Assembly: GCA_963664115.2 (NCBI GenBank)
Contig: CAXWPJ010000012.1
Location: 512,001-576,000, forward strand
DNA length: 64,000 nucleotides
Direction: 5' to 3'
DNA from: Terriglobia bacterium
GTDB taxonomy: Bacteria > Acidobacteriota > Terriglobia > 20CM-2-55-15
The notes beneath the pieces were generated by a model, which worked only from the letters and a program-made list of their open reading frames with translations, had not been told where the DNA came from and did not search any database. This document shows positions 3,870 to 62,551 of the stretch, one piece after another. Every line of letters starts with the position of its first letter. The stretch's first letter is position 1. The position numbers and the translations under genes were made by a program.

Positions 3870-3971
3870 CGCGCGACGGCCTGCGGCCGCGCGCGGATTG
3901 ACATAACACCCATACGGCGACACTGCCAGGGCTGCCATAGGTGCCGGACCCTGCTTGTTCCGCTTATCCGC
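3870..3971 (+). repeat. Family-2 repeat with XerD-like arm (copy A)
   Basis: Similar to 31058-31133, 31934-32035 and inverted 55476-55546; minus strand reads GTGTCGCCGTA-TGGGTG-TTATGTCAATC. Confidence 0.8.
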
Positions 3972-4395
3972 GCCGGACCTTCACATTGGCCGGTTTTAGG
4001 TCTCGATGGATGATCCCTTGCTCGTGTGCGGCCTCAAGGGCCTCGGCGATCTGTTTCGCAATAGGCAGAGCTTCATCAACGGGAATCGGCCCTTGTGTAA
4101 TACGGTCGGCGAGGGTCGGCCCCTCGACCAACTCCATCACGAGGGCGTGGACGCTGGTGGATTTTTCAAAGCCGTATATCTGGGCGATGTTCGGATGGTT
4201 CAACGTCGCCAGGGTTTTGGCTTCACGCTCAAACCTTGCGAGACGATCCTCATCCTTCGCAAACTCTTCAGGCAGCGTCTTGATGGCGACTTCGCGCCCA
4301 AGTTTCGTATCCCGCACACGCCACACTTCTCCCATGCCACCCTTACCTAAGAGCGTTGAGATCTCGTAGCGGCCGAGTTTGGTGCCGGATTCCAT
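3964..4395 (-). pseudogene. N-terminal fragment of a Hanks-type Ser/Thr protein kinase
   Basis: LGKGGMGEV, VAIK and HRDLKPAN motifs; ends before DFG, at the family-2 repeat. Confidence 0.9.
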
Positions 4396-4496
4396 AAAAT
4401 CGTGTGTGCCGAAACGAAACGTGAAAAAGTTGGATAAATCTAACTACAGGTAGGGTTTATAAGCAAGGATGTTGTGAGCCCGAAGGCCTCGCCCAA

Positions 4497-4536
4497 TTCT
4501 CAACGTCCGAGAAGATGATTTCTCAGGACTTGAGAA
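4497..4536 (+). repeat. 40-bp dif-like array site, intact
   Basis: Identical to the site at 2040. Confidence 0.95.
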
Positions 4537-4556
4537 TCATGTTCACGGTTGAAGGC

Positions 4557-5168
4557 TCAGAGCCCTTTCGTCATTCGATAGAACTTCAATCCCGGTATAG
4601 CCAATCTCTTCGGCCACTGCGACTCGACGTTCATCCCGCGGCGCTCGTAGAATCGGCAAGCTCCCGCATTCCTAGCTGAAACGTCGAGGGATAGTCGAGT
4701 CGATCCGCTCGCACGAGCCCGATCTTCAACGAAGTCCATCAAGACGGAGCCGACGCCATCGCCGCGAAGTTCCTTATCAACAGCGATGGCTTGGAGGTAG
4801 AAATCGCCATCGGCGATTGAATCGACAATCCGCATGATTGGAGCAAACAGTATCTCTACGGTCCTCATTTGTAGATTGAATCTTCCGGCAGCCCGCTTCA
4901 GGGGTTGGCGCGAAGAACGGCGATGCTGCTCCGCGGTGTACACGCAGACTGTTCCCACGATGACGTCGTCACGTTCTGCGAAAGTCACATTTTGGTAGGA
5001 GAGGTCGTGGTCGGGCTGGGCGAACGCCGTGGCGACTATTTGCTCGGCGCGGCGACCGAGCCAAAAACGAAAGAATCCCTCGGCTGCTTGGTCAAGGTAG
5101 CGAGCAAATGCCAGACCTTCATCGAACGTGGGTTTGGCGGCCCTTAAGACTATCGAATGCCGATCCAT
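4557..5168 (-). CDS. GNAT family N-acetyltransferase (single-gene interval)
   Basis: YLQAIAVDKELRGDGVGS acetyl-CoA motif and N..A.RFYER.G; fills the interval between two sites. Confidence 0.9.
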   Translation of the reverse strand: MDRHSIVLRAAKPTFDEGLAFARYLDQAAEGFFRFWLGRRAEQIVATAFAQPDHDLSYQNVTFAERDDVIVGTVCVYTAEQHRRSSRQPLKRAAGRFNLQMRTVEILFAPIMRIVDSIADGDFYLQAIAVDKELRGDGVGSVLMDFVEDRARASGSTRLSLDVSARNAGACRFYERRGMNVESQWPKRLAIPGLKFYRMTKGL

Positions 5169-5211
5169 ATCGTCCTTCTACGCCGAACATGGTAGTAGGC
5201 CGTGCATCCAA

Positions 5212-5251
5212 TTCTCAACGTCCGAGAAGATGATTTATCAGGACTTGACCT
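5212..5251 (+). repeat. 40-bp dif-like array site, intact
   Basis: TTCTCAACGTCCGAGAAGATGATTTATCAGGACTTGACCT, followed by kinase-tail remnant HWFEEPKERGPVP* on the minus strand. Confidence 0.95.
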
Positions 5252-5767
5252 CGAAAATCAGGGAACAGGCCCTCGTTCTTTCGGTTCCTCGAACCAGTGT
5301 TTATTTAGGGCGCGTTCTGAATCGAGAGGCGGCTTGGTTCAGGGAGTCGTGTAGTTCTTCCCAAGCTTTCTGCAGGCCTGGTTTCAGATCGTCCCAAGCT
5401 TCAGCAGTCGTTTCTTTCAATTCGCGCAACTTGTACTGCGCGGCTTCCAGTTTCCTGCGAAGTTTACTGATCTGCGCTTTAACTTCGGACGTAATGCTTC
5501 CGCTTCTGTCCCGGCAGCGGTTTCCAGTTTCCTGCGAAGTTTACTGATCTGCGCTCGCAACTCGTTGAGTCGATCTTCCACGTTCGGCCCGTCAGATCGT
5601 TGGTCAGTCATCTAACCTAAGCATAATATGGAATGTCCTTGCTGTTTCCGTATCCCGAGTCAAAGACGGTACGGCAACGACTATACAACCCAGTGAAATT
5701 ACTACGGACCTACTCAGAGCCATTGGAAAGAATCATCAGGGGTTGAACGGGCTCAGTTAGTGGCAAC

Positions 5768-5965
5768 CTACGGCACCGGCACCCGCTCTTTCAGTTCTTC
5801 AAACCAGTTCAGGACGATGTTGCTTCGGTCTGGCTCTGCCTCGCTGCCTTTGAGCGCGGCATGCTGAACCATCACGAATCGTTGACCGTCGGCTGTCAAA
5901 TCGTAGACGGGAAACGGCGCCATATAGACTTCATTGCGGCCTGACTCGTCGGAGACATACGCCAC
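5768..5965 (-). pseudogene. Internally deleted C-terminal remnant of a kinase/TolB-like propeller protein
   Basis: AYVSDESGRNEVY joined to YDLTADGQRF...IVLNWFEELKERVPVP*. Confidence 0.7.
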
Positions 5966-6021
5966 CCAGTTGCCAACTTTCGTTACAACAGGGCCACCGT
6001 CGAGTTCAGCTCTAACTTTCC

Positions 6022-23035: not shown

Positions 23036-23631
23036 TAGAGTTTGCAGTTGCGAATCAGTTTTTGCTTATTGCCAACAAATTCGATCAAAACGTTTACGAG
23101 TTAATCTCAATGGCGAACTCCAACTATCCGCGTGGGACGATCGCGTCCCCCGGTCTTACGGCCGGTACGTGCTTGCGGAAGGACTTCGGAATGATCAACG
23201 AGCTCGTGCCAACGCCGGATCTGATGCTGTCCGCCTGGAAAGTCAACGAATACATTCCCTATCATATAGTCGAGACCGCCTTGAACAAGACTGAACTGTA
23301 TGGGAAACAAATCGCCGTGCTCGGCTATACGTACAAGAAGAATTCCGACGATACAAGGGACAGTCTCGTGCCGAAACTAATCCGATACATCGAACGCCAG
23401 ACACCTAGTAACATTACGGTCTGCGAGCCCCACATAAAGTCTGATGCGATCGGCGAATATCTCAACGTCGATATGCCTAAGTGTCTCGAGTCCGCCGAAG
23501 TGATCTTCATCGCCGTCAATCACGACTGTTTCAGTGACCCCGCCGCTTTTCGCGGGATGGCACAGCCGGGAGCATGGGTGATCGATGTCTGGAATTGCCT
23601 TGGAACCGGGCATATAGTTCAACGAATTTGA
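23036..23631 (+). pseudogene. Nucleotide-sugar dehydrogenase, 5'-truncated by IS
   Basis: PGLTAGTCLRKD and LGYTYKKNSDDTRDS C-terminal motifs only. Confidence 0.85.
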
Positions 23632-23634
23632 CCA

Positions 23635-24624: not shown

Positions 24625-24922
24625 CAGTCACGCGACCGAAAATCGCAATTCATCACACACGTGAATGCTCACCATTGCTGACCGCCGACAGGAAAGAAAG
24701 CCTTCCTTGCAAGCCATGTGCTCTGACGGGATACAGTTCTCTTCTCATCTTTCGGCAGCTATAGGGAATACCTCGCAGGCCGTCGCACTATCGGAAAGGG
24801 CAGAAGGAGCGTCTGCTTGCCGGTCCATGCAGGGGATTTCTCGTGCCGCAGTTGTAGAGAGGCACACGGAGATGTAGAGACGTTCGGCAGGACCAACATT
24901 GGAACGACTCCGAAAATTCGAA

Positions 24923-25969: not shown

Positions 25970-25979
25970 CGCATCTCGG

Positions 25980-30824: not shown

Positions 30825-30924
30825 GTTGCACGGCAGCTCAACGAGCGGCCACGCAAGACTCTGGAGTTCGCAACTCCGGCAGAAACATTTAATGCTTGTG
30901 TTGCATCGACCGGTTGATCTGAAT
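30825..30924 (+). mobile_element. IS30-family terminal remnant
   Basis: Encodes VARQLNERPRKTLEFATPAETFNACVASTG* and ends in IR GTGTTGCATCGACCGGTTGATCTGAAT. Confidence 0.85.
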
Positions 30925-30943
30925 TGATTTATCAGGACTTGAC
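30925..30943 (+). repeat. Array site, right half, abutting the IS30 end
   Basis: TGATTTATCAGGACTTGAC. Confidence 0.9.
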
Positions 30944-32175: not shown

Positions 32176-32215
32176 TTCTCAACGTCCGAGAAGATGATTT
32201 GTCAGGACTTGAGAC
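32176..32215 (+). repeat. 40-bp dif-like array site, intact
   Basis: TTCTCAACGTCCGAGAAGATGATTTGTCAGGACTTGAGAC. Confidence 0.95.
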
Positions 32216-34531: not shown

Positions 34532-34571
34532 CTCTCAATTTCCGACAAGATGATTTCTCAGGACTTGACCG
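34532..34571 (+). repeat. 40-bp dif-like array site, intact variant
   Basis: CTCTCAATTTCCGACAAGATGATTTCTCAGGACTTGACCG, followed by a kinase-tail remnant. Confidence 0.9.
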
Positions 34572-34637
34572 CGAAAAATTACGGCGTCGGCACCCGATGC
34601 TTCAGTTCTAAAATCAGTTCAGGCCGATGTTGATTTA

Positions 34638-35145: not shown

Positions 35146-35166
35146 TCCTCAACGTCCGAGAAGATG
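35146..35166 (+). repeat. Array site, left half (split by IS30)
   Basis: TCCTCAACGTCCGAGAAGATG; right half at 36419. Confidence 0.9.
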
Positions 35167-36415
35167 ATTCAGATCAACCGGTCGATGCAACACCTGCGTT
35201 TAATGTCTCTGCCGGATTAGCGAAGTCCAGCGTCTCACGAGGTCGCCCGTTGAGCTTCCTTGCGATCATATCCAAATGCTCCTGTGAGTGAACCGACAAG
35301 TCCGTACCTTTAGGGAAATACTGTCGGAGCAAACCGTTCGTGTTTTCGTTCGAACCCCGTTGCCAGGGACTCCTCGGATCGCAAAAGTAAACGGCAATGT
35401 CGGTGGCCAGAGTGAACCGTTTGTGATTGGCCATTTCCAATCCGCGATCCCAGGTCAGTGTTTTATAGAGTTCGGTCGGGAGTTTGTCTGCGTGTTCGAT
35501 CAGCGCGTTGATGACGGTTTCGGTTTCCTTATTCGGAACCTTCACCCGCATCACGTACCGGGAGAAACGTTCGACCAATGTCGCAATGTAGGTGTTGTTC
35601 GAACCCGCTATGAGATCCCCTTCCCAGTGTCCGGGGACCGCGCGATCTTCAACCGAAGCCGGGCGCTCACGGATCGATATCAGATCCGGGATCTGCCCGC
35701 CACCCCGGCCTTTGCGACTGGCATGCTGGGACCGGCGAATCGTGCGTTTGGTCCGTAGATGCTGTGTCAGTTCTTTCTTCAGAGCCCCGCGGGCCTGGAT
35801 GAAAAGGCTGCGATAGATCGTTTCGTGTGACACGTAAAGTGACTCGTCGTCTGGATATTCGCGTTTCAGCCAACCCGCAATCTGTCGCGGTGCCCAATCC
35901 TCCCGGAGCTTCTCTTCGACGATCCCGCGTAAGCTGGGATAGCGGATCAGTCGACATCTCTTCGGGCGGTGAGCCCGTTCCCATGCGCGTTCATCCGCCT
36001 CCAACGCTCGATAGTTATCATAGCCCCCATTGCGACCGATCTCCCGACTGACTGTGGAGGGTGTACGCGACAGCGACTCGGCAATTGAACGGATCGATCC
36101 CTTGGCGGCAATGCCTCGGGAAATCTCTTCACGCTCGGCGAGGGTCAGCGCCCGCTTAGAGCGGCATCGTGTCCTGGGACAGATTCCACCATACGGTGCG
36201 ATCTGACCATAAACCGAAGAGCCCTCCTTTCCGAACACACGTCCGATCGCTTTCAGACTCTCTCCCCGCTGCCAGCGAATCCACACCTCGTCTATATCGG
36301 CGAGTGTGTAGCCTCGCCGCACCCGGTCTTTACTCTGTTTCTTCCGTCGTTTCTTACGCATACACTCCACCTCCTCCTTTTAGGTACAGTGTTGCATCGA
36401 TCTGTTGAGACCACC
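35167..36415 (-). mobile_element. IS30-family IS (transposase 35174-36370)
   Basis: GHWEGDL, TWDRGLE and WQRGSNENTNGLLRQYFPK motifs; imperfect 27-bp terminal IRs. Confidence 0.95.
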
Positions 36416-36418
36416 TCG

Positions 36419-36436
36419 TTTCTCAGGACTTGACCT
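36419..36436 (+). repeat. Array site, right half (split by IS30)
   Basis: TTTCTCAGGACTTGACCT. Confidence 0.9.
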
Positions 36437-36712: not shown

Positions 36713-36752
36713 TTCTCAAGGTCCGAGAAGATGATTTCTCAGGACTTGAGAA
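36713..36752 (+). repeat. 40-bp dif-like array site, intact
   Basis: TTCTCAAGGTCCGAGAAGATGATTTCTCAGGACTTGAGAA. Confidence 0.95.
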
Positions 36753-40658: not shown

Positions 40659-40695
40659 TTCTCAACTTCCGACAAGATTTATCAGGACTTGAGAA
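40659..40695 (+). repeat. Array site with a 3-nt deletion in the core
   Basis: TTCTCAACTTCCGACAA-GAT-TTATCAGGACTTGAGAA. Confidence 0.9.
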
Positions 40696-41058: not shown

Positions 41059-41098
41059 TTCTCAACGTCCGAGAAGATGATTTGTCAGGACTTGACCC
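41059..41098 (+). repeat. 40-bp dif-like array site, intact
   Basis: TTCTCAACGTCCGAGAAGATGATTTGTCAGGACTTGACCC, then ELKERVPVP* remnant. Confidence 0.95.
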
Positions 41099-41531
41099 AG
41101 GGGAATTAGGGAACCGGCACACGTTCCTTCAGTTCGGTGGCGCCGGCGATGGCCGTTTGGCGTGCCCTCATACGAAAACAACAACCATAACGGAGGCTCC
41201 GTCCCTTGAGACTCCGGCCACCCTCTATCCGTTCGGCCTCTGAATTTCCTCGTGCGGAATTCTTTCGAGCAATTTTTTCAACTTCAGTAAAGGGATCATG
41301 GCGAAGTTGAAAAGCCTCTACATTCGGTTGATGGCCTGCGAAAGAAAGTGCTTCCCGACCCGAAAAGACCCCCCCAAAAAAAACTGGACGAATTACAGAT
41401 ATTAGGGATATTGTTTCAATCACAAATAACAGAATCTTTCCAATGTACAAATTTCTGAACGTATTCCGGCCGGAATTACGTCCTGTTTGGTTCATAGGAG
41501 CGTCGACAAACGCGAGTCTAAGGAGGACCCT

Positions 41532-43164
<1,633 letters not shown>

Positions 43165-43169
<5 letters not shown>

Positions 43170-44654: not shown

Positions 44655-46027
44655 CACGTGAGTGTGAACAAAAAGGAGTCCGAGATGAAGAATAAGACGA
44701 TTGCAGTCGATCTGGCAAAGAATGTTTTTCAAATTGGTGTTTCAGATCGCCCCGGGCATGTAGAGAAAACCTATCGTTTAAGTCGGGCAAAGTTTCTGGG
44801 GTTCTTTGCGAACCAGGAGCTGGCGACCGTGGTGATGGAAGCCTGCGGATCCGCCCATTACTGGGGCCGGAAGATCCGGGAACTGGGACACACGGTCGTT
44901 CTGATCTCGCCGCAGTATGTGACGCCCTACGTCAGGCGCAACAAGACCGACCGTACGGATGTGAAGGGATTGTTGGAAGCCTATCGCGACAGCGATATTC
45001 ATCCGGTCCCGATCAAGACGCTGGCCCAACAGCAACTGACCTCATTGCATCGAATCCGTTCGGCGTGGATGCGAACCCGAACCGCACGGATCAATACGGT
45101 GCGGGGGTTGTTACGGGAGTTTGGCTACGTGATCCCGACCGGAGCGGATCATCTGGTGCCGGGGGTAATGGAGCTGATCGAAGATGCAGATGTCGTCATC
45201 CCCAGTGTCGTTCGGGAGATGTTTCACCAGGTGTGTGGCGAGATCCGTGAATTGGAATCTCGCATGCGATCGGTGGAACAAGAGTTGAAGACGCTGGCTC
45301 GGCAGATGCCTGAGGTCGCGCGTCTGACGTCGATTCCCGGCATCGGCCTGTTAACGGCAACGGCAATGGTGGGGTTTGTTGAAAACATCAAACGATTCCG
45401 AACGTCCCGCCATTTTGCCAGTTATCTGGGACTCACACCCCGGGAACATTCCAGTGGCAACCAGCGACGCATGGGCCGGATCAGTAAGCAAGGCGATCGT
45501 TACCTCCGGATGCTGTTGGTTCATGGGGGCCGTTCCCTGTTGTGGAGTGCCCATCGAGAGGGCGCCACACCGACACCTCTCCAGCAATGGGGTCTCCAGA
45601 AACACGAGTTCCGCGGACACAACAAGGCAATCGTTGCACTGGCCAACAAGTTGGCGCGTCGCGTGTGGGCGGTTTGGAACCGTGACTGTGACCATCAGGC
45701 CCGGTATCAGGCGGCCTGACCCGGAACAGTCGGAATATCTTTTCAGCGAGCTGCGATGAGGTTCGAGATGATGGCGTACCGGTCAGACCGGCGCGGGGCA
45801 ACGCCGACAAGTCCTTTGGCCCTTAGAGGCCGTTATTTTATCGGTTGGCTCCCCGCGCGCAAATTTCCATCATGGCCCGGAACAATACAGTTCCACTTTT
45901 GAGGCCGAAGATACGGGTGCAGTCGACTAGCTACTCACCTCGTAACTTCTAGTCAGTCCTGCTGAATGCATTTTGCCGAAGAAAGCTGACGGGAGAGCTG
46001 CGCCTACTTGACAGAGGAGTCCAGATA
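44655..46027 (+). mobile_element. IS110-family (IS1111-type) element, left end lost; transposase 44685-45719
   Basis: AVDLAKNVFQ, MEACGSAHYW, KTDRTD and SSG motifs; 300-bp 3' noncoding region ending GGAGTCCAGATA. Confidence 0.9.
45760..45930 (+). ncRNA. Candidate bridge/seek RNA of the IS1111-type element (limits approximate)
   Basis: Stem GCGCGGGG/CCCCGCGC enclosing CAAGTCCT (reverse complement of array-site AGGACTTG); second hairpin contains AGATAC, matching the IS end junction. Confidence 0.6.
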
Positions 46028-46099: not shown

Positions 46100-47041
46100 T
46101 CACGACTCTATCGCGAAGTCCATCCCCAATAAGCTCTCGCGCAGGAGAGCAGTGTCGCCAATATCATCGCCATATAGGACACCAATGACGGCGGCGTGGA
46201 GAGCACGAAATCGCGCCATGATTTGGATCGGCTTTTCGACCGCTCCATAGCTATCCCAAAATACTTCGCGACCCTCGGGTGGCAGAAAACCGAACGCAAT
46301 AGCCAAATCCATACTGGGGCTTCCTAGGTGGATGTCGCCCCAGTCAATCACGCCGCTTGGCAGTCCAAAGTTGTCCACAAGGATATGCTCCGCTGAAAAA
46401 TCGCCGTGTGACAATGTGTTCAACCGCGGTTGAAAGTCCGATGACATCTGTTCAACGATCCGTTCCCAAGGTGAAACGTCAGCAACCAATCCCTTTCCTC
46501 GAATCGTCAGAAGACTTGAGAGCAACTGTGGAATACGTTTTCCCATGTCAGCTCGGCCAAATTTATCTCCCGGAATTTCCAGATCTCCCGGATCAATGGC
46601 ATGTAGAGTTGCTAAGAAATTCGCTAAGGGAGCAGCAAGTTCCTTCCTCTGCTCTCGCGTCAATCCAACACTCAGTGCCGTGGTGCCTGGAAGAAAGCGA
46701 TAGCCCGCAAACGGCCAATCATACTCTTGTGTTGGCTTACCAACCCATCTTGGTACTGGGATAGGGAAAGGCAACTGAGCTGCAATTCGAGGAAGGACGC
46801 GAGTTTCCGTCTGCAGCAGTTCCACCGCTATCTCTCGGCGAGGAAACCGGAAAACCCAAGTCCTGTTCACTACGTAGGCCGTATTGTCCCAACCCTCACC
46901 TAGAAGTTGGATATGCGCAGGTCGAAGCTCCGGGAATTGGCTTTCGATCAGACGAACGGCCGCATCTGGCATCACGATATGCTCAGGTAGCCAAGGTTTA
47001 CCGGTAGGCATTACTGAAGAGAGTACCAGTCTGGAGTTCAA
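46100..47041 (-). CDS. Aminoglycoside phosphotransferase-like kinase (start probably 47011 or 46972)
   Basis: GEGWDN, VFRFPR, HGDFSAEHIL and IDWGD motifs; single-gene interval. Confidence 0.9.
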   Translation of the reverse strand: MNSRLVLSSVMPTGKPWLPEHIVMPDAAVRLIESQFPELRPAHIQLLGEGWDNTAYVVNRTWVFRFPRREIAVELLQTETRVLPRIAAQLPFPIPVPRWVGKPTQEYDWPFAGYRFLPGTTALSVGLTREQRKELAAPLANFLATLHAIDPGDLEIPGDKFGRADMGKRIPQLLSSLLTIRGKGLVADVSPWERIVEQMSSDFQPRLNTLSHGDFSAEHILVDNFGLPSGVIDWGDIHLGSPSMDLAIAFGFLPPEGREVFWDSYGAVEKPIQIMARFRALHAAVIGVLYGDDIGDTALLRESLLGMDFAIES

Positions 47042-47074
47042 CGTCCGAGAAGATGATTTCTCGGGACTTGAGAA
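47035..47074 (+). repeat. 40-bp dif-like array site, intact
   Basis: AGTTCAACGTCCGAGAAGATGATTTCTCGGGACTTGAGAA. Confidence 0.95.
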
Positions 47075-47697: not shown

Positions 47698-47737
47698 TTC
47701 TCAAGGTCCGCGAAGATGATTTCTCGGAACTTGACCT
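47698..47737 (+). repeat. 40-bp dif-like array site, variant
   Basis: TTCTCAAGGTCCGCGAAGATGATTTCTCGGAACTTGACCT, then INIVLNWFEELKDRVPVP* remnant. Confidence 0.9.
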
Positions 47738-47814
47738 CGGAAATCAGGGTACGGGCACCCGATCCTTCAGTTCTTCAAACCAGTTGAGGACGATGTTGAT
47801 TTCGCCCGACTCAG

Positions 47815-47904
47815 AATCGAGAACCTTAGGGCTGGAGTGGTATAACTTGAAATCCGTCTCTTAGAAAGACAGCCCTTTTGTCCGAATTACTCTGACGACG
47901 TACA
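47815..47904 (+). mobile_element. Solo right end of the IS3-family element
   Basis: AATCGAGAACCTTAGG...TCTGACGACGTACA. Confidence 0.85.
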
Positions 47905-48445: not shown

Positions 48446-48485
48446 TTCTCAATGTCCGAGAAGATGATTTCTCGGGACTTGACAC
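48446..48485 (+). repeat. 40-bp dif-like array site, intact
   Basis: TTCTCAATGTCCGAGAAGATGATTTCTCGGGACTTGACAC. Confidence 0.95.
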
Positions 48486-49109: not shown

Positions 49110-49313
49110 TGTGCAGAGCCCCGACGAAATCGTCATGGAAGCGCTGTCAAGTTAAGCTGACTGGTGGCGTTTTGGCCCCCCTCCACCACTTCTAACTTGC
49201 GTACTGAGTCTGAAAGGCAAGAGTTAGAGGCAATGAGCGGGTCAAGTGCTGCCAAACGACCTTCCCGTCATCTGACCAACGCGCCTTGTTTCGGCCATTT
49301 GCCAAATGACGCC

Positions 49314-49338
49314 AAGATGATTTATCAGGACTTGAACT
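49314..49338 (+). repeat. Array site, core plus right arm only
   Basis: AAGATGATTTATCAGGACTTGAACT, followed by a degenerate kinase tail. Confidence 0.85.
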
Positions 49339-49468
49339 CGAAAACCAGGGGATCGGCTCCCGTTCCTTCAATTCCTAGAACCAGTTTTTGCCCCTCCATG
49401 GAGGTGGGGTTCCGGGAGCGCCAATTAAGATTGCGTCATTTGCTCGATAGGCAGCTAAATTAAGAGTC

Positions 49469-50361: not shown

Positions 50362-50660
50362 TCACGGCACCGGCACTCGTTCCTTCAGTTCTTCAAACCA
50401 GACTTCATGAGTGGGCGCTCACCCCGAATGATGAAAATCCCGTTTTGCGCCCTAAACACCCAGAAGGGAGCAAAACGCCCGTACTGAATCTAAAGAACTT
50501 ACCCCATATTTTCGTAACAGTTCAGGACGATGTTGATTTGGGGGCGGGCGGGTGCAATTACTTCGGTTCGGTCTGCCGCGAAGGCCATCAAGAACTGTTC
50601 GCCGTCGGGCGTGATGTCGTAGTCGCGATAGCTGATCTCCACCGTGAACTCTTCGATGGG
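50362..50660 (-). pseudogene. Two kinase/propeller C-terminal remnants
   Basis: WFEELKERVPVP* at 50362-50400 and YDITPDGEQFL...INIVLN at about 50520-50630. Confidence 0.7.
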
Positions 50661-51204
50661 AAACGTGGTTTCGTTCGTGAACCTGACACCCACGGAATTG
50701 CTTTACCTGTGCGGGATCCCCACAGCCGCCGGGATTGCAGCCCGGGCGCACTCAGCGGCCCCATGGGAGGGATGCTGCCCAACGTTCGGCAACACCGGAG
50801 AAGTTCTAACTGGAAGCTGGCCTCAAATTGCCTGTTGCGCAGACTGACGACGCGATCCGCCACGCCCGCATTACGACAGGGAATCAGGCGATAACTACAT
50901 CCATGAAGGAAGCCTTGCTCAAATCCTGCGCCGCCTCTCCAACAACGTATTGATCGCACGTGCTGCGTCGTCGGGATCACCAAACTTGCAGGGCTCGGTG
51001 TCGATAACAGTTTCATCGTAAAGCATAGTGAAGCCGGTCATGTTTCTGCCGAAGGCAAACATAGGATGGACCATCAACCAGCGCCCCATTTCTGTCCAAG
51101 CCTCAAGCAGTGGTGGGTGTTCCATGTCAATGGGCCTGGCCAGCCAACCGAACCAAGCCGCGAGGGTCAACCAGGCACGGGCAGCGCCGATAGGACGTGA
51201 TTTC

Positions 51205-52490: not shown

Positions 52491-52517
52491 AGAAGATGAT
52501 TTATCGGGACTTGACCT
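52491..52517 (+). repeat. Array site, right part (split by group II intron)
   Basis: AGAAGATGATTTATCGGGACTTGACCT. Confidence 0.9.
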
Positions 52518-52526
52518 TGAAAATCA

Positions 52527-54127
52527 GAGTTATAACCGAATCTGGTGTTTGAGGGATTGAATAAGAGCGGCGTATCTGGTTGATTTGTTGTGACAAAACT
52601 TCAAAGCAACCATAGGAGATACGCCACTGTGAGCAAGAGTAACGTGAATGGACCGGAAGGTCGAGAAACGATTGAGGATCCAGTAACAGAACTACTACGA
52701 GTTGGGGCACAGCAACTGATCCAACGCGCAGTGGAAGCCGAATTGGCAGAGCTGCTATCCCAGCACGGTGGCCGGCGAACTGAGACAGGAAACGCCGGGG
52801 TGGTACGCAACGGTTATCTGCCGGAACGCGAACTGCAGACGGGATTGGGTCCGGTAACAGTCCAAATCCCGAAGGTCCGTGCCAAGACGGGCGAAGCTGT
52901 GACGTTCCGATCGGCCCTGGTACCACCGTACATTCGGAAGACGAAGTCGCTGGAAGCAGCGGTGCCGTGGTTGTATTTGAAAGGCGTTTCCAGCGGCGAG
53001 ATGGGTGAGGCCCTAAAAGTTCTTGTCGGTCCCCAGGCGCAGGGTCTGTCGGCGAGCACGGTATCGCGGTTGAAACAGGTTTGGGGCGAACAGTACCGCC
53101 TCGGATGCGAGGAGCGTTTGGATGCAGATCGCTGGGTCTATGTCTGGGCCGACGGCATCTACAGCGGACTTCGGGCGGAACAAACCAAGTTGTGTGCATT
53201 GGTCGTGATCGGCGTGAATGAACGCGGAGAGAAGCGTTTCCTGGCGATCGAAGACGGTGTACGGGAATCGACACAGAGTTGGCGCGAGGTCTTGTTGAAG
53301 CTGAAGTCCCGTGGGATGAATGTTCCGAAGTTGGCCATCGGTGACGGTGCGATGGGGTTCTGGGCCGCACTGGAGGAAATCTATCCCGAGACACGTCAAC
53401 AACGTTGCTGGATGCACAAAGTCATGAACGTCCTCAACTGCCTGCCCAAGTCGGTCCAGGCGAAGGCGAAACAGGCCCTGCACTCGATCTGGCAGGCCGA
53501 GACGAAGGCAGACGCCGAGAAGGCATTCGACTTGTTCATTGAAACCTATGAACCGAAGTATCCGAAAGCCACACTCTGCCTGCAGAAAGACAGAGAGGAA
53601 CTGCTGGCCTTTTACGACTTTCCGGCCAAGCACTGGCAGAGCATCAGAACGACGAATCCCATTGAGTCGACCTTTGCCACCATTCGACACCGAACGAAGC
53701 GATCCAGAGGTTGCCTGACACGGGATGGCATGCTGCACATGATGTTCAAACTGGGCCAGTGCGCTGAGAACAATTGGCGACGATTACGAGGATTCGATGA
53801 TCTGAGCAGAGAGTAACTGCTGGCCTTTTACGACTTTCCGGCCAAGCACTGGCAGAGCATCAGAACGACGAATCCCATTGAGTCGACCTTTGCCACCATT
53901 CGACACCGAACGAAGCGATCCAGAGGTTGCCTGACACGGGATGGCATGCTGCACATGATGTTCAAACTGGGCCAGTGCGCTGAGAACAATTGGCGACGAT
54001 TACGAGGATTCGATGATCTGAGCAAGGTAATCATCGGAGTGAAATTCAACGATGGTGTCGAAGCGACACAAGTCGATCAGGCCGCCGCTTGAATCAATCT
54101 CCTAAACACCACTTTTGACAATAACTC
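52527..54127 (+). mobile_element. IS256-family IS, copy 2, with internal 216-bp tandem duplication
   Basis: Same element as 10125-11509; 9-bp TSD TGAAAATCA at 52518-52526 and 54128-54136. Confidence 0.95.
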
Positions 54128-54274
54128 TGAAAATCAGGGAACCGGAAATCTAAGGATATGCAGGAGGTTCGCTATATTGCCGGGGCAAGTGCGTATCCAC
54201 TGTCTCGTAAGCTTCCCTGTCAAGGAGATAGAAAAGCTTACAAGATCAGTACGAGTGTCAGCTCAGGTTCCGTA

Positions 54275-55114
54275 CTACTGCAGCGCAGGCAGGTTCCTGC
54301 CGCCTGTCGCGACGAAGCTGACGCAGTCTCCCTGATTCTTGAAGACGCCGAAATCCTGCCATCCGCCCCTCTTGCACTGGTTCGCATTAGTGGGCAGCGT
54401 TGGCGGCGGTGGCAGCACTCGCTCGAACGCCACGGTATAGGTGGCTTGGCCTTCACCCCGGTCGGTATTGTCCCCAGAAGGGCGGGACGCCTGAAAAAAG
54501 GTCACCGTATAGGACTGGCCCGCGACTAGGGACAGGGCATCGACCGTTTTGATGTTAGGAAGAGGGGGGGGAGGGGAACCGAAGGCCTGCAAGAAACCGC
54601 GCTGGGTTCCCTGTGGAGGGGTCCAATCTCCAACATCACCACCCCAAGGGCCGGAGTTGCCCTCAATCACGCCGCCGAAGTTGGTATAGGTCCAAGGGAG
54701 TACCAGGGGTGACCCCGCCAGGTACTGAAACGCGCCGCTTGTTAAGTCCGGAACTTCGAATCCATCCTGAAATAACACCGTATTCGTCGCATCGTGCTCA
54801 ACCACCACGGCGTCGAGAAAGATCGTGGCGTCGACCCCGCCGCCGGGTTGGCCAGCGATGGGGGCGTCCGTCATGTTGAAGTTCAGCGTGTAGTCACCCG
54901 TTTGCGTTGGGACGAACCCTGCTGAGTACGGATTGTTTGGCCAGAGTTCCCCGGTGGCGGTGGTGCGCGTAAAGATTACCTCCGCCTGTGCCAACGCCTG
55001 AGGTGAGGCGAATAGTATCGCGCAGATCGCTACCAACGCTGCATTTGCAAGAAAGCTGTGCCTAAAACTCGACGAAAAGTTCGTAAGGGTCTTCGCGATT
55101 CTGACAGTGTTCAT
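54275..55114 (-). CDS. Secreted hypothetical protein
   Basis: Signal peptide; Pro linkers; C-terminal QCKRGGWQDFGVFKNQGDCVSF module. Confidence 0.8.
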   Translation of the reverse strand: MNTVRIAKTLTNFSSSFRHSFLANAALVAICAILFASPQALAQAEVIFTRTTATGELWPNNPYSAGFVPTQTGDYTLNFNMTDAPIAGQPGGGVDATIFLDAVVVEHDATNTVLFQDGFEVPDLTSGAFQYLAGSPLVLPWTYTNFGGVIEGNSGPWGGDVGDWTPPQGTQRGFLQAFGSPPPPLPNIKTVDALSLVAGQSYTVTFFQASRPSGDNTDRGEGQATYTVAFERVLPPPPTLPTNANQCKRGGWQDFGVFKNQGDCVSFVATGGRNLPALQ

Positions 55115-55475
55115 TCCACACTCCTTGTGTGTTTACAGTGATCGTTTCCTACGACATCATGAGGGGGCAACTGGATCCCGCCCCAGATCGATAATGCTCG
55201 GGCCGCAGTTCAATACCTGCTACCTTACCCATGACATTCATCGCTCAAGTGGCTGTTTTCGGGAACCAGATCGAGGGCCTAGTGTGGCGCTTGCAGAAGG
55301 TTTGCAGTTCTCACTGTGTGAGTTTCCTACTCTCGCAGCCCACAGCAAACAACTCGTGGGTTCCGCTGACTCCCTGTCAAGCGTTCCAATGTCACACTAA
55401 TGAGTGTAACGCCTAGGAATGTAGCGGAAGCTGTGTCTGTAGTGCAACTAGGAAAATAGCGAACGAGCCCGATTT

Positions 55476-55546
55476 GCGGATAAGCGGTTCAAGCATGGGC
55501 TGACGACTACGGCGGCGCTGACATTGTCGTAGTATGTTACTTAACC
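55476..55546 (-). repeat. Family-2 repeat (copy D, inverted)
   Basis: Begins GCGGATAAGCG, the reverse complement of the conserved CGCTTATCCGC end. Confidence 0.7.
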
Positions 55547-55596
55547 TGCCACTTTCAACTCGGGCACCTCGCCATCTCAACCATAACAAAGTCCAC

Positions 55597-55659
55597 CATT
55601 CCTCCCTTACCCAGGAGTGTCCCGATCTCGTAGTGACCGAGTTTGGTGCCCGATTGCAT
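55597..55659 (-). pseudogene. Second Ser/Thr kinase N-terminal stub
   Basis: MQSGTKLGHYEIGTLLGKGGM. Confidence 0.85.
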
Positions 55660-56083
55660 CATTAAAGTGTGTCGCTGGAAATACCGAGAAAAACTCTGCA
55701 AAGGATACTAAGGGAGGAAGTTAGGCGCTATTAAATTCTCAGGTCAAACGTTAGATTCTTATCGGGAGTAACCCGGCGAGAGGCGAGGGGGACAAGTGGT
55801 GATGAATGACCGGGTTACTTTCGATGAGGGCGTTTGAAGGAAGCCGCCCACAGGTCAGGCGGCTATGTAGTTTGAAAGCGGTTTCGGGTATCGACGACGT
55901 GGAGGTGGACCGAGTAAGCGCCCCGGTTGAAACCAAAAGGTCGGTTTGAAGCTGGGGATTTGAGACTCACCGTATCTGAGAATGATGACTGAAACACTGT
56001 TGTCGTGGTGAATTTGGGCAACCAGACGCACGTCGGCTGAACGTGCCCGAGCACGTCGCCAGTTCCAATGGAATGGGGGGGTG

Positions 56084-57265
56084 TCAGGAAGAATCGAATC
56101 CCCTCCTTTCAAGTGGCCACCGGATCTGGGCCGCGGTGAGCCGCTCCCCGATCGTCATGGCCGCGCCGCAGTTGGGACAGCGCCAGGAGTTGGGGCGTGC
56201 ATCGGTCGATCGTTCAGATGTCTGAGTCGCAGTAGCACCTCCTAACCAATGCCGGCACAAAGGCAGCAGTGAACCACGATGGCGGGCTGAGAGAAAACCA
56301 AAGAACCGGATGCGGACGAAGCGGCGCGGCAAGGTGTGGGTGAGAAAGCGGATGAGAAACTGTTCAGCCGGAAGCGTCATGTTGCGGGGTGCGTGCTTGT
56401 GCCGGGAGTCTTTCCAGCGAAACGTAACCTGACCGTCCTGGAGATCGACGAGGCGGTGGTTGGAGATGGCGACCCGATGTGTGTAACGGGCCAGATAGTG
56501 GAGTACGTGTTTGGGCCCGCCGAATGGACGCTTGGAGTAGACGACCCAGTCGATGTGATGGAGCGGGCCGATAAAGGCCGCGAATCGTTTCGGGTCGTTT
56601 AATGGGGCCAGATCGCCATAGAAACGTAGCTCTCCCCGCTTGAACGATCGCCGAAGCCGGTCCAGAAACTTACCCCGAAACACTTCACTGAGCACCTTCA
56701 CTGGAAGGAAGAACCGATGGCGGGCCCGAATCCATCGGGTGTGGTCGCCCGACAGGCCACCGGCAGGAACGACACAATGGATGTGGGGATGATGACCCAG
56801 CGTCTGACTCCAGGTATGGAGCACGCTGAGCACGCCAATCTGGGCGCCCAGATGTTTCCCGTTGGCGGCCACTTCCTGCAACGTGGCCGCGCTGGCCCCA
56901 AACAGCAGGGCATAGATCACACGTTTGTTCTGATAAGCCAACCGCGCCAGGGGTTGGGGCAGGGTGAAAACGACATGCACGTAGCGAGTCGGCAGTAACT
57001 CCCCGGTGCGATCCGTCACCCACTGGTCACGGGCACGGGTCTGACACTTCGGGCAATGCCGATTGCGGCACGAGTTGTAGGAGAGGGCGCGATAGTCGCA
57101 GTTCGATTCCGAGCATCGGTCCCGGTGGCCTCCCAGCGCCGCGGTGCGACACTGCTGAATAGAGTTGAGGACGCGCAACTGACCGCCATCGAGCCGGCGA
57201 TGCGCCACCAGGTCGGAACCATGACGACGGATGATGTCGGCCACCTCAAGGGTGGGCCGGGTCAC
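56084..57265 (-). CDS. IS91-family (Y2/HUH) transposase with zinc-binding domain
   Basis: YNSCRNRHCPKC, HVVFTLP, HPHIH and YLARYTHR motifs. Confidence 0.95.
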   Translation of the reverse strand: MTRPTLEVADIIRRHGSDLVAHRRLDGGQLRVLNSIQQCRTAALGGHRDRCSESNCDYRALSYNSCRNRHCPKCQTRARDQWVTDRTGELLPTRYVHVVFTLPQPLARLAYQNKRVIYALLFGASAATLQEVAANGKHLGAQIGVLSVLHTWSQTLGHHPHIHCVVPAGGLSGDHTRWIRARHRFFLPVKVLSEVFRGKFLDRLRRSFKRGELRFYGDLAPLNDPKRFAAFIGPLHHIDWVVYSKRPFGGPKHVLHYLARYTHRVAISNHRLVDLQDGQVTFRWKDSRHKHAPRNMTLPAEQFLIRFLTHTLPRRFVRIRFFGFLSARHRGSLLPLCRHWLGGATATQTSERSTDARPNSWRCPNCGAAMTIGERLTAAQIRWPLERRGFDSS

Positions 57266-58146
57266 CGCAACCCGACTTCGCTTGAATCCAATAGCGGGAT
57301 CTGATCCAGCGGATTCTTTATGGCCTGTAAGTGCCGGTTCGACAGATGCAGATACAGCGTGGTGTGCTTCAGGTCAGCGTGGCCCAACAGGAGTTGAATC
57401 GTGTAGAGATCGGTCCCGTCTTCCAACAGGTGCGTTGCGTAGCTGTGTCGCAGGCTGTGAGGTGAGATCCGCTTGCGGAGAATCGCGCGCTCACGCGCTT
57501 CCCGGCAAGCGCGCCACACCATCTTCGTGGAGATCGGTGCATCGACCCGACGGCGCCGTTTCATGCCCGGAAACAGGTAGGTCTTCGGCTTCATCCAGCG
57601 CGCGTACTGGCGCAATGTCTCCAGTAGTCGTGGACTCAGCGGCACGGCCCGGTCCCGTCCGCGTTTCCCACCCCGGATCTGAATCACCATCCGTGCGCTG
57701 TCGATGTCCTCTATTTTGAGGCACACCAGTTCACCGCGACGCATCCCGGTGCCGTAGAGCGTCATCAGCATCGCCCGCTGCATCAACGTGCGACACCCAT
57801 CGATCAATCGGGCCACTTCCCCACGAGAGAGCACGACCGGCAATCGCCGATCCTGTTTCGGCATCGGTGTGTGTTCGAGCAGATAGGTCCGATTCAGTGT
57901 CTTAACGAAGAAGAAGCGTAATGCCGAGACGTGTTGCGCCACTGTCCGGGCCGACAACCCCCGATCTCGAAACAGGTGCACCTGGTACTGCCGGATCTCG
58001 TCGGCTCCCAATCGGTCCGGCGCTCGGCGGAAATGTCGGGCAAAGTTCCCCAGGATTCTCAGGTAGGTCTGTACCGTTCTCGGAGCGTAATTACGTCGCT
58101 GGAGCTCGTCCAGCATCAACCTGCGGTTGGGCGTCATTCGGATCAT
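57262..58146 (-). CDS. Tyrosine recombinase with N-terminal SAM-like domain, coupled to the IS91 transposase
   Basis: YGTGMR, HSLRHSYATH and LLGH...TTLY catalytic motifs; 4-bp overlap with the transposase. Confidence 0.95.
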   Translation of the reverse strand: MIRMTPNRRLMLDELQRRNYAPRTVQTYLRILGNFARHFRRAPDRLGADEIRQYQVHLFRDRGLSARTVAQHVSALRFFFVKTLNRTYLLEHTPMPKQDRRLPVVLSRGEVARLIDGCRTLMQRAMLMTLYGTGMRRGELVCLKIEDIDSARMVIQIRGGKRGRDRAVPLSPRLLETLRQYARWMKPKTYLFPGMKRRRRVDAPISTKMVWRACREARERAILRKRISPHSLRHSYATHLLEDGTDLYTIQLLLGHADLKHTTLYLHLSNRHLQAIKNPLDQIPLLDSSEVGLR

Positions 58147-58256
58147 AGAGATATCCCTCCTGTATCTCTACAACCCGATACCCTCCCTCAGTCAGGCCCG
58201 GTCCTTCACCACGCACGCAAAGCGTCCGCCGCGCCAGCGGCTTAGTTCAAACGACA

Positions 58257-58273
58257 TTGTCGGACGTTGAGAA
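58257..58273 (-). repeat. Inverted left arm of the array site
   Basis: Reverse complement TTCTCAACGTCCGACAA. Confidence 0.85.
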
Positions 58274-58292: not shown

Positions 58293-58332
58293 TTCTCAAG
58301 GTCCGAGAAGATGATTTATCAGGACTTGAACT
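58293..58332 (+). repeat. 40-bp dif-like array site, intact
   Basis: TTCTCAAGGTCCGAGAAGATGATTTATCAGGACTTGAACT, then INIVLKWFEELKERVPMP* remnant. Confidence 0.95.
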
Positions 58333-58480
58333 CGAAAATCACGGCATCGGCACCCGCTCCTTCAGTTCTTCAAACCACTTCAGGACGATGTTGATCCGGG
58401 ACCGCCTCGCCCCACCGATGTCAGCTCTGCCAGCTGGAACAATCGTGATGAATTCTTCGCCGGCTGGGTGATGCCCACTT

Positions 58481-59608: not shown

Positions 59609-61098
59609 TGTAGCCCGTCAGAGCATTTCGCACAGAATCCGCTGAAAAACTAAGAGACACTTTTCTAATCAGAACGATCTGAAGGAGGATCGAATGAGTG
59701 AGAAAGTGTCGGCAGAGAATCGGGTACGGGAGATTCGTCGGAAGACGAGGAAGAAGTACTCGTCGGAAGAGAAAGTGCGGATTGTGTTGGAAGGACTGCG
59801 AGGTGAAGAGAGCATCGCAGCGCTGTGCCGACGCGAAGGGATTCCGTCAAATCTGTATTACCGGTGGAGCAAGGACTTCCTGGAGGCGGGGAAGAAACGG
59901 CTGGCTGGGGACACGAAGCGGGAAGCGACATCGAGCGAAGTCACTGAATTACGCCAGGAGAACGAACAGCTGAAGCAGGTGGTAGCTGAAATACTGCTAA
60001 AGAATCGTTTTCTGAAAAAAACGTTGAACGTAACGGACTCCGAGAGCATCGATATATGAGGCAATCGGGATCTGAGAAGCTGGAGACGATCCGAGTGGTG
60101 GAAGACTCGGAGTTGTCGGTGACAGCGACCCTCCGGGAGCTGGGCGTCCCCCGCAGCACGTTCTACGGTTGGTATCGACGATACAAAGAGCGTGGCGCAG
60201 CCGGCTTGTTAGATCGGCATTCCGGCCCCGGCTTCTGCTGGAACCGGATTCCGGGACCGGTGCGGGAACAGGTGGTCGAAACCGCGTTGAACCACCCGGA
60301 AGCCTCACCGCGGGAACTGGCCTGGCAGATCACCGACACCCAGGACTACTTCATCTCCGAATCCAGCGTGTATCGGATTCTGAAGAGATGCGACCTGATC
60401 ACCAGTCCCGCATACATCGTGATGACGGCCAGCGATCACTTCCAGCAGCCAACCCGGCGTGTGAACGAACTCTGGCAAACTGATTTCACTTACTTCAGGG
60501 TCGTCGGTTGGGGTTGGTACTACCTGTCGACCGTGCTGGACGATTACTCTCGCTACATCATCGCCTGGAAGCTCTTTCAAACCATGGCCGCATCTGACGT
60601 TCAGGACACGCTGGACGTTGCACTACAGGCGACAGATGTCGGACAAGTACAAGTCCGGCACCGACCGCGATTGTTGAGCGACAACGGCCCCTGCTACGTA
60701 TCGCACGAACTCAAAGACTATTTACAACGTCGTGGTATGGAACACACCCGGGGTGCGCCCTATCACCCGATGACACAGGGCAAGATCGAACGCTATCACC
60801 GTTCGATGAAGAACGTGGTCAAGTTGGAACACTACTATTATCCGTGGGAACTTGAGCAGGCGATCGCGCAATGGGTCGAACACTACAACCACCATCGGTA
60901 TCACGAATCTCTGAACAACGTGACACCGGCTGACGTGTTCTTCGGGAGGGATCAGCAGATCCTTGCACGTCGTGACCAGATCAAAAGAAAAACGCTGGCT
61001 CGACGCAAAATCGAGAACCTTAGGATTGGAGTGGTATAACTTCAAAACCGTCTCTTAGCTAAATGGTCTTTTTGTCCGAATTATTCTGACGACGTACA
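59609..61098 (+). mobile_element. IS3-family IS, full copy 4
   Basis: Same ends; orfA 59694-60059, orfB 60056-61039. Confidence 0.95.
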
Positions 61099-62190
61099 GT
61101 GCACCCCTACGGAGTTGCCATAGATGCTGCTGGAAATATCATAGTAGGCGATGTAGGCAATGCAGGCACAGGTAGCATCATAAGTGTGAATCCGGCTACC
61201 GGCGTCCAGAATCTCATTTCCTTTAATGGGTGGATTGATGCTCCAGTGGCTGTAGCGATAGATGCCTCCGGCGACATCATCGTGGGAGATGTCGCAACCC
61301 ACGCCATCATCAGGGTAAACCCGTTGACCGGCGCCCAGGAGCTCATCACCGGGGGTATCGCTAATCCTTCGGGTATAGCCATTGACACCTCCGGTCACAT
61401 CATTGCGACTAACAACACCGAAATAATCAGTGTGAATCCAGTCACGGGCGCCCAAACGGTCCTCCCTATTCCCGCGGCTGGGTCATTATTCGTCAATCTC
61501 GAAGGTGTAGCCATAGATGGCGCTGGTAATCTTATCGTTGGCAACGGGGGCGTTTCGGGCACCCTGCCTCGCATCATCAGTGTGAATCCAGTCACGGGCG
61601 CCCAAACGGTGATTTCTTCGAATCCATGCTGTGCAACACAGGGTAACCACTTCTGGAATCCCTTTGGTGTCGCGATTGACGCCGCCGGAGATATCATCGT
61701 TTCCGATTGGAGCTCTAATAAAATCGTAAAGGTGGATCCTGTTAGCGGTGTCCAAACGCTGATTTCTTCTGGTGGTGTATTTAATGATCCCTTGGGCATA
61801 GCCATCGTCCCCCCTCTCGTGGAGACCGTCGTGACCATCGACATCAAGCCGGGAACTGATCAAAATTCCATCAATCTCAAGAGCAAAGGTGTGATCGCCG
61901 TCGCCATACTTTCGGAAGGTGATTTCGATGCGGTTGCAGAGATAACCCCTGAAAATGTTTCAGGAATCCTCTTTGGTCCGAGTGAAGCTTCCCCAGCGCA
62001 CGACCCTGCGGGCCATGTGGGAGATGTTGACGGTGACGGCGATGTGGACGTTGTACTGCATTACCGAACCCAGGAAACCGGAATCAGCGACGGAGACGAC
62101 GAAGCGTGTATTTCCGTCAGTGGCGAGATATTGGCCTGCGATTCGATCCTCATCACACCCGGCAGTAGCAAGGGTGGGGGCAGAAGGTAG
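61099..62190 (+). pseudogene. NHL-like beta-propeller protein, 5'-truncated by IS
   Basis: PxGVAIDAAGxIIV...VNPVTGAQ repeats; C-terminal IDIKPG...DVDGDGD domain. Confidence 0.8.
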
Positions 62191-62212
62191 TACTCAACTA
62201 ATTCTGATCGAA

Positions 62213-62241
62213 GAGGCTCGTCCATGTGGCGGGCCTTTTTT
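62213..62241 (+). terminator. Intrinsic terminator
   Basis: AGGCTCGTC-CATGT-GGCGGGCCT hairpin followed by a T-tract. Confidence 0.65.
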
Positions 62242-62441
62242 CTTGTGTCTCCTGGCCCCTAAAGACCGCAACTCGACTCGTCCACCATCACCAACCACGA
62301 AAAAGATCTCGTAACGGCCTAATTTGGTGCCGGGTTCCATGTTTAAAGTGTGACGCTAAGTGGAACAGCGAAATTCTGGTAAGTCTATCTACATGGGAGG
62401 GATATTGGCAAGGAAAGGGTCAACTCCCGAAACTTGGCAAA

Positions 62442-62481
62442 TTCTCAACGTCCGGGAAGATGATTTCTCAGGACTTGAGAA
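62442..62481 (+). repeat. 40-bp dif-like array site, intact
   Basis: TTCTCAACGTCCGGGAAGATGATTTCTCAGGACTTGAGAA. Confidence 0.95.
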
Positions 62482-62551
62482 TCATTTTCATGGTCATTTA
62501 GGGCACCGGCACAACACAAGTTTTCTCTCAGGCGCGCAATTGTACGTGGAC

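Follow-up and report, generated by a model that had tools for sequence, protein, structure and literature searches.

Two-armed repeats with kinase gene remnants as probable cassette borders in a Terriglobia genome

The stretch of 64,000 nt analysed here (the window), from the 4.89-Mb genome of a Terriglobia bacterium (GCA_963664115.2), carries a family of short two-armed sites, many of which adjoin the first or last codons of a Ser/Thr-kinase gene. These repeats probably delimit cassettes that exchanged neighbours there, likely by means of a tyrosine recombinase that is still unstudied. The kinase ends are probably decaying leftovers of a site-flanked kinase gene, the likely founder; since about half of the sites keep the last codons of the kinase, the cassettes likely derive from such a gene whose middle was replaced. 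An earlier note on the window had proposed a site-kinase-site founder; it included neither a second class of sites, type B, nor a candidate recombinase encoded elsewhere in the genome. In the following, G000 is the source genome, with contigs C1 to C12, G001 to G004 are four congeners (G002 consists of two contigs and is 97% complete), and L numbers are fetched loci. The proportions of A sites with a tail in G002 and G003 refer to fetched regions, and C11 is excluded from the G000 counts of tails and heads at A sites and of stub decay, as C6 and C11 are partial duplicates.

The conserved core of the site spans 34 bp in a 14-6-14 arrangement (positions 4-37: TCAAnGTCCGnnAA, a 6-bp spacer, TTnTCAGGACTTGA; 201 sites); its positions are mostly more than 90% conserved, and the variable ones form the symmetric pairs 14/27 and 15/26. 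A profile scan of G000 returned 148 type-A and 41 type-B sites, 30 of the latter at 30 bits or more, and none in a shuffled genome. The type-A spacer GATGAT occurs in 127 of 166 arm matches and the type-B spacer, TGTCGT or GGTCGT, in 19; type-B sites have the arms of type A and a different spacer, and lie 78-92 bp upstream of kinase starts, adjoining the kinase promoter. A third, degenerate class with spacer GCCGAC occupies window positions 30961-30985 and 32093-32117, and this spacer is found as well beside homologues of the candidate recombinase in other families; in relatives, the same arms enclose CCGGAT, GAGGAT, ACCGAC, TGCGAC or GCCCTC. Two arms, a centre of 6-8 bp and exchangeable spacer classes are characteristic of tyrosine-recombinase cassette systems, and all are present here. 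The A and B sites of G000 fall into 44 clusters that cover about 0.42 of its 4.9 Mb; neighbouring A pairs share one orientation in 93 of 97 cases, and 12 of the 30 strong B sites form inverted pairs with another site, 18-21 or 108 bp apart. Site orientation follows no clear pattern relative to replication direction in G000, and some clusters are near tRNAs and phage-type integrases, while most are not.

The site-sharing relatives are Terriglobia genomes. Across 41 genomes, the strict site pattern was counted 119 times in G000, 74 in G002, 37 in G003, eight in G001, not at all in G004 and once in one other; a looser pattern is present in 12 of 35 genomes of the family. Outside the family, 400 further genomes of the phylum yielded a single isolated match, and none was found in viral contigs or in plasmids.

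The window contains 15 whole sites, all on the plus strand, and five further damaged or split ones; these and the associated features are as follows.

2040..2079, plus strand: type-A site, 14-6-14 core, spacer GATGAT
2582..2621, plus strand: type-A site that together with 2040 bounds a glyoxalase cassette
3869..3971, minus strand: separate hairpin repeat of about 105 bp whose XerD arm is dif-like, lying where a kinase head breaks off
3977..4395, minus strand: first 419 nt of a kinase gene (head stub, Pkinase), beginning 101 bp from an A site
4497..4536, plus strand: type-A site
4535..5211, minus strand: 677-bp GNAT acetyltransferase cassette; 90.5% identical site-to-site copy amid other neighbours in G001
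5212..5251, plus strand: type-A site
5258..5298, minus strand: kinase tail stub adjoining the site; stop 5258-5260
5768..5974, minus strand: kinase tail of about 65 codons, without a whole site
30923..30943, plus strand: right half of an A site next to the end of an insertion sequence (IS)
32176..32215, plus strand: type-A site
34532..34609, plus strand: type-A site (34532-34571) and kinase tail stub, stop 34579 on the minus strand
35146..36434, plus strand: left site half (35146) and right half (about 36414-36434), separated by an rve-type transposase (35174-36370)
36713..36752, plus strand: type-A site; C10:212438 has the same right flank with a different left one
40659..40695, plus strand: A site, spacer shortened by a 3-bp deletion
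41059..41135, plus strand: type-A site and kinase tail stub, stop 41106 on the minus strand
47035..47074, plus strand: type-A site; 300-bp left flank identical to C6:26654, right flank unrelated
47698..47818, plus strand: type-A site and kinase tail stub, stop 47744 on the minus strand
48446..48485, plus strand: type-A site
49241..49390, plus strand: degenerate inverted B/A pair and decayed tail (49345, stop mutated to TGG)
50362..50675, minus strand: two kinase tail pieces (50362; 50505-50675), no whole site
52491..54145, plus strand: right part of an A site (left arm lost), IS256 (52527-54127) and three-codon tail, stop 54134
55596..55659, minus strand: kinase head stub, 64 nt kept
55736..55748, minus strand: type-B right half, 78 bp upstream of the kinase start
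55749..58251, minus strand: IS91-family element in the B site, with Y2 transposase (56084-57265) and tyrosine recombinase (57262-58146)
58252..58273, minus strand: type-B left half, spacer TGTCGT, 19 bp from an inverted A site
58293..58467, plus strand: type-A site and kinase tail, stop 58339 on the minus strand
62442..62520, plus strand: type-A site and decayed tail, stop 62498
62945..62984, plus strand: type-A site that together with 62442 bounds a SnoaL-like cassette

The tail stops placed by the earlier note at 5259, 34579, 41106, 47744, 49345, 54134, 58339 and 62498, with further tails at 5768, 50362 and about 50520, are all in the right positions, as are its kinase starts at 4395 and 55659; its observation that the window lacks an intact kinase also holds. 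The TTCTCA stub that it saw before 55659 is real and can now be assigned to the right half of the split B site. Contigs from public runs match the head/cargo junction near 3975 (run X2, 3887-4366) and the interval 54101-55775 (run X10), each with 0 differences, so that these junctions are not assembly artefacts. As for neighbouring genes, a 560-amino-acid protein with collagen-like and further short repeats (41487-43169) lies within a site-bounded interval, and a cluster of sugar-nucleotide, glycosyltransferase, methyltransferase and ABC-transporter genes, interrupted by IS3-type copies (23062-29298), is part of a 27-kb stretch without whole sites.

Exchange at the sites is evident from their flanks. 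Among 59 flank-sharing site pairs, 32 share the left flank only, 14 the right only and nine both, the last group representing duplicated regions. In 166 site-to-site intervals, from G000 and the fetched regions of its relatives, three cassettes recur whole elsewhere with new neighbours: one of 1251 bp (99.8%), one of 351 bp (96.8%) and the 677-bp GNAT cassette (90.5% against G001); a kinase tail follows both copies of the latter, and hence one outer flank is partly alike. Flank exchange at a site, together with whole cassettes in new contexts, is the behaviour of tyrosine-recombinase cassette systems. Within G000, C6:24226-48346 and C11:3905-58373 contain the same cassettes in differing order and orientation, and may represent strain variants that differ at the sites. 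Cargo frames are in the kinase sense in 29 of the 43 short intervals that hold one.

The kinase remnants are of two kinds: tails, the last codons of a kinase family ending in ...NWFEELKERVPVP*, and heads, which retain its beginning. Three intact paralogues of 883-902 amino acids with Pkinase and PD40 domains (Pfam) have a head-like start and a tail-like end; heads and tails are thus the two ends of one family, as the earlier note had supposed, namely Hanks-type kinases with an N-terminal Pkinase domain, a C-terminal TolB-like (PD40) propeller and the NWFEELKERVPVP end. The same note had named flanking sites at intact paralogues as a test of its proposal: an A site, whole or damaged, follows the stop codon in all six intact or nearly intact members of G000, and most have an upstream site as well (A at C10:251145 and C5:8574; B at C5:155791; a split B at C12:23257; a damaged A with a split head at C2:322937; none at C9:945169). 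Intact site-kinase-site units occur in G000 (C10:248430-251284), G001 (L124), G002 (L021, L128), G003 (L076) and G004 (L168, with spacer CCGGAT). Tails adjoin 65 of 122 A sites in G000 (48 of them at one offset), 36 of 68 in G002 and 19 of 30 in G003; in G000, 21 of the 122 A sites are followed by a head within 240 bp. Chance can be excluded, since the shuffled genome gave 0 sites and random places tested positive for tails in 0 of 3000 and for heads in 1 of 3000 trials.

Viewed from the remnants, 71 of the 145 tails in G000 adjoin a whole site, and 32 more adjoin what is left of a right arm. For 32 of 51 heads, a scored site lies no more than 200 bp away, and split or deleted sites are seen at several of the rest. 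Heads retain 45-800 nt, and their break points are scattered; tail junctions are spread across the whole motif, in a survey in which very short tails escape detection, and no motif or word is shared by the head and tail break points. The class of heads with a 101-bp leader resembles the A-19-B-78 class minus 34 bp. The 71 site-adjacent tails comprise 61 distinct 27-nt haplotypes, with the three codon positions conserved at 96, 97 and 75%; over 2485 pairs, 6717 codon differences are synonymous and 3322 non-synonymous. Because these differences are mostly silent, the tails come from many once-working genes, in agreement with the derivation from different paralogues that had been proposed for the window. 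A role of the tails as translated tags on cargo proteins was rejected: 21 of 93 short tails contain a stop within the motif, and only three end a frame of at least 100 codons, against six and ten in the other frames, so that the tail frame is less open than the others. The stubs are decaying, untranslated passengers.

How the kinase lost its interior is suggested by the distribution of its ends. A tail co-occurs with a head or kinase promoter within one inter-site interval more often than expected (pooled 27/49/12/55, odds ratio 2.5, p=0.024), whereas no such association is found across one site (odds ratio 1.3, p=0.46), which weakly favours hollowing. The founder cassette of the earlier note is therefore supported in its intact units and in the co-occurrence of heads and tails, and more weakly in the hollowing itself. 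Insertions and deletions, probably illegitimate events, would replace the kinase interior to yield new cassettes; only copies that keep their sites would stay mobile, and stubs would thin out with distance from the site, while the kinase leader preserved in head stubs may drive cargo genes. Heads fused directly to tails by internal deletion were observed at C2:744533, C2:271514 and C12:328494, as frames of about 43-72 codons or as frame-shifted joins. An alternative to which little credence is given accepts site-specific recombination and supposes that short tail-site-head fragments were seeded at new places, the DNA between two seeds becoming a cassette. The frequent tail-site-head junctions (21 of 122 A sites in G000 have a tail plus a head or kinase promoter) and the shortness of the stubs on both sides would fit such seeding; the linkage of tail and head within intervals and not across sites speaks against it, as do the direct head-to-tail fusions and the long partial kinases that are also present. 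Seeding is only weakened by these data, because later shuffling would erase a signal across the site.

The earlier note had further suggested that the cassette might explain the expansion of these kinases, which is contradicted by the distribution of the family. Full-length matches occur in 31 of 35 family genomes, and the kinase-richest relatives, with 0-3 sites apiece, hold at least 26 copies each (G042, G045, G024), 24 (G007), 22 (G021) or 21 (G018), against nine in G000, seven in G002 and four in G003; the sites are therefore not the cause of the expansion, and the site-rich genomes are where the kinase family is being dismantled. Two loci, L216 (G045) and L217 (G042), are site-free tandem arrays of full-length kinase-propeller genes with gaps of about 5 bp. 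When the best kinase of each of 26 genomes was inspected, four had A or B sites, two variant sites and 20 none. Of 56 kinase domains placed on a tree, 18 are site-linked, and these cluster together (none of 500 shuffles scored as low).

Twenty distinct tyrosine recombinase frames, from 27 Pfam matches, were examined in G000, and only one of them, C5:52192-53139 (316 amino acids), has sites on both sides, 77 and 91 bp away. It lies between two inverted B sites, each leading outward to a kinase leader and head, and its sequence contains all catalytic residues (R, K, HxxR, H, Y). The protein scores under the cut-offs for XerC, XerD and IntI (60.8 bits for TIGR02249, whose threshold is 265). Of the solved structures, that of a XerC-like protein (PDB 4A8E, E 2e-19) comes closest to it, and the candidate's family numbers at least 7703 clusters among 8000 scored, named 'XerD' or 'integrase' by their sources, with homologues present on acidobacterial plasmids. 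Related sites are enriched beside members of this family: with a profile built from G000 sites alone and a cut-off of 12 bits, 8 of 52 near windows (the 200-bp flanks of 26 homologues) were positive against 6 of 234 distal windows (p=0.0009) and against 3 of 88 windows beside other recombinases (p=0.019); for seven loci fetched after the idea had been formed, 2 of 14 near and 1 of 70 distal windows exceeded the cut-off (rank test p=0.002). One spacer occurs on both sides of the homologue gene at L264, inverted as in G000, and in G007 and G017 the homologue is next to kinase genes and a site. This C5 enzyme is the best candidate and a better fit than XerC/D, IntI, serine recombinases, RAYT or the IS91-linked recombinases. 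The enzyme or a relative would bind the arms, recombine A with A, and excise and insert site-to-site circles; the unlike spacer would block recombination of B with A, so that B would mark the recombinase module and the kinase promoter.

Other candidates were sought as well. Pfam, a custom profile and a motif scan revealed no catalytic-domain-only recombinase of about 175 amino acids in G000 or the fetched loci, and the small recombinase frames inspected in relatives are fragments that no sites flank. Among the listed matches between the island genes of G000 and the fetched regions of G001-G004, no common recombinase was seen, only kinases, insertion sequences and cargo. Large serine integrases are absent from G000, and small resolvases were rejected, their flanks being without sites. 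RAYT could not be linked to the sites: the Y1_Tnp genes of G000-G004 show one weak site (near C10:490081), with none listed near the others. A divergent 332-amino-acid tyrosine recombinase, 96% alike in L162 (G003) and L163 (G002), is without a counterpart in G000, and no site was scored in its vicinity.

That the host XerC and XerD recombine the sites, as they do for the dif modules of Acinetobacter, is improbable. Besides them and a phage-type integrase, no tyrosine recombinase was seen in G000, G002 and G003 alike; the left arm matches 8 of 11 bases of the XerC arm of the G000 dif, and the inverted A/B pairs with unlike spacers recall dif modules as described in PMC11705084. But the XerD-side arm matches at most 6 of 11 bases, and the ATAA/TTAT motif, which according to the same source governs Xer binding and cutting, is variable in the sites. 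Moreover, the site is limited to one family while XerC/D are general, and a canonical single-copy dif is present at C2:108119 and once in each of the four congeners; the identification of the site with the chromosomal dif was accordingly rejected.

Insertion sequences are frequent at the sites. The IS91-family element of the window interrupts a B site, and so does its G002 relative; 7 of the 8 G000 copies read are in a site or within about 35 bp of one. Six identical IS91-family elements have an upstream tyrosine recombinase (C1:92926, C1:107675, C2:196451, C12:35350, C12:158198, C12:486987), and at five of them a site, whole or degenerate, is no more than about 35 bp away. On this proximity, and with relatives in G001, G002, G013, G017 and G045, one might assign the action on the sites to these element-borne recombinases, which is highly improbable: their insertion points differ, at GTT-type words and at no single site position, and none was found in G003. 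An IS110-family element also uses the sites, entering A and B sites at one position just inside the right arm at 7 of 8 readable junctions, so that the sites look like targets of several parasites. The insertion position is a likely natural target for a bridge-RNA test; the loci of the element are the following.

G000: C5:47971, C9:1122380, C9:1234343, C10:234819, C10:425236, C11:41148, C12:333806
Window: 44658-45719

A second repeat family of about 105 bp, with about 24 copies in G000 (window 3869-3971, 31031-31133, 31933-32035), consists of a hairpin whose 3' arm is dif-like (a near-perfect XerD arm, a partial XerC arm), followed by a GC-rich hairpin. A scan gave 26 matches, one of them dif itself, against two after shuffling; the repeat lies at the break point of five kinase heads, and its fold-back is reminiscent of the CTX phage attP.

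Several observations weigh against the cassette reading. The remaining 42 of the 145 tails in G000 are without any site; the co-occurrence of heads and tails is weak (p=0.047 in G000, non-significant in G002 or G003 alone); and the site-flanked kinases do not form one clade, requiring 10 changes on the 56-row tree. For the candidate enzyme, 44 of 52 homologue flanks stay below a cut-off that was picked after the first set had been seen, and related genomes are not independent; the enzyme was not found in G002 (74 sites), G003 (37 sites) or G004, where the best matches are 26-35% identical, and the G001 copy is broken. Arrays in G002, G003 and G004 would thus be orphaned or served by a passing plasmid. 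The variable arm positions are not linked to their own flanks (position 15 agreement 0.54 in left-sharing pairs against a background of 0.53; position 26, 0.31 in right-sharing pairs against 0.35), an outcome not expected from one invariable cleavage point in the spacer; the junction may slide along the arms until it is resolved, the sites may convert each other, or the exchange may be homologous. Finally, a circle or empty site was never directly seen, in public-run contigs whose joints at sites mostly have fewer than 31 letters on one side and are thus uninformative on this point; cassette cover is uneven between public runs, which carries no evidential weight.

Some of these points would suit a regulatory role of the site, as an operator or hairpin within the intergenic region of the kinase, the mosaic arising by homologous recombination between 38-bp repeats and stubs and requiring no dedicated enzyme. 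Crossovers that seem spread through the site, two site-rich congeners in which the candidate enzyme was not found, and B sites immediately upstream of the kinase promoter all agree with this. It is nevertheless unlikely. The core is intact at many kinase-free sites, with foreign DNA joined at the core edges, and the arms are kept while the spacers form classes; outside this family of genomes, related sites are also found next to members of the recombinase family, mostly without a kinase nearby. The site has no Rfam match and no arm-to-arm covariation as in an RNA hairpin (115 of 500 shuffles reach the value), and its interpretation as an RNA family or hairpin was rejected.

Recombination of cassettes at dedicated sites can be compared with described systems: Acinetobacter dif modules (pdif/xrs, XerC/XerD), including chromosomal dif-module islands (PMC11705084, PMC12907356), insertion by IntI in integrons (PMC8138268), and further material in 10.1101/542381. 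The present system shares with dif modules cargo between short two-armed sites with a 6-bp centre, clustered arrays, insertion sequences that use the sites, and spacer classes that presumably decide which sites recombine. It differs in that its sites are too far from dif for XerD, a separate dif exists, and host-dif resemblance in the XerD arm and ATAA/TTAT core is missing; its arrays are nearly all direct with one spacer (93 of 97 A pairs), whereas most xrs pairs are inverted and differ in spacer; the system probably has a recombinase family of its own, and its cassettes end with kinase remnants.

In integrons, attC sites have RYYYAAC...GTTRRRY boxes, vary in length and act as a folded single strand. 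Like integrons, the present system has arrays of unrelated genes as direct-repeat cassettes, has been reshuffled recently, keeps arrays where the enzyme is lacking, and possesses a second site class next to recombinase and promoter. The sites described here are without RYYYAAC/GTTRRRY boxes, have a fixed length and spacer and no arm covariation; the C5 enzyme is far below the integron integrase cut-off, and 195 kb separate the IntI-like gene at C9:714590 from the site closest to it. The REP/BIME repeats, which are spread by RAYT, are similar as imperfect palindromes of about 40 bp right after stop codons, in inverted doublets and as IS110 targets; here, no RAYT gene is bracketed by sites, cargo moves from site to site, and the loop is a conserved spacer that occurs in classes. 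Large, divergent sets of kinase paralogues have a parallel in the acidobacterium Solibacter, for which an expansion of Ser/Thr kinase paralogues is described (PMC3174227); the available part of that source reports no flanking sites or hollowed copies, and the expansion studied here is not site-driven.

A literature search that covered few subscription papers found no description of such a cassette system, which would likely be a gene-shuffling system distinct from integrons. It is possible, though the odds are somewhat against it, that it represents a third class of bacterial cassette system beside integrons and dif modules, in which a very large unstudied recombinase family acts on double-stranded 14-6-14 sites of two spacer classes, and that new cassettes of this lineage form when a mobile sensor-kinase gene is hollowed out, its ends and promoter being left as a record of their birth. 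The first making of gene cassettes is, to our knowledge, unresolved for integrons; here, one genome shows every stage, from the intact founder through part-gutted copies and few-codon stubs to bare sites around foreign genes. A huge recombinase family gains a concrete site for testing, and a small recombinase with exchangeable 6-bp spacers could serve genome engineering. In its output the system is integron-like and in its site anatomy dif-module-like, while it stands outside both.

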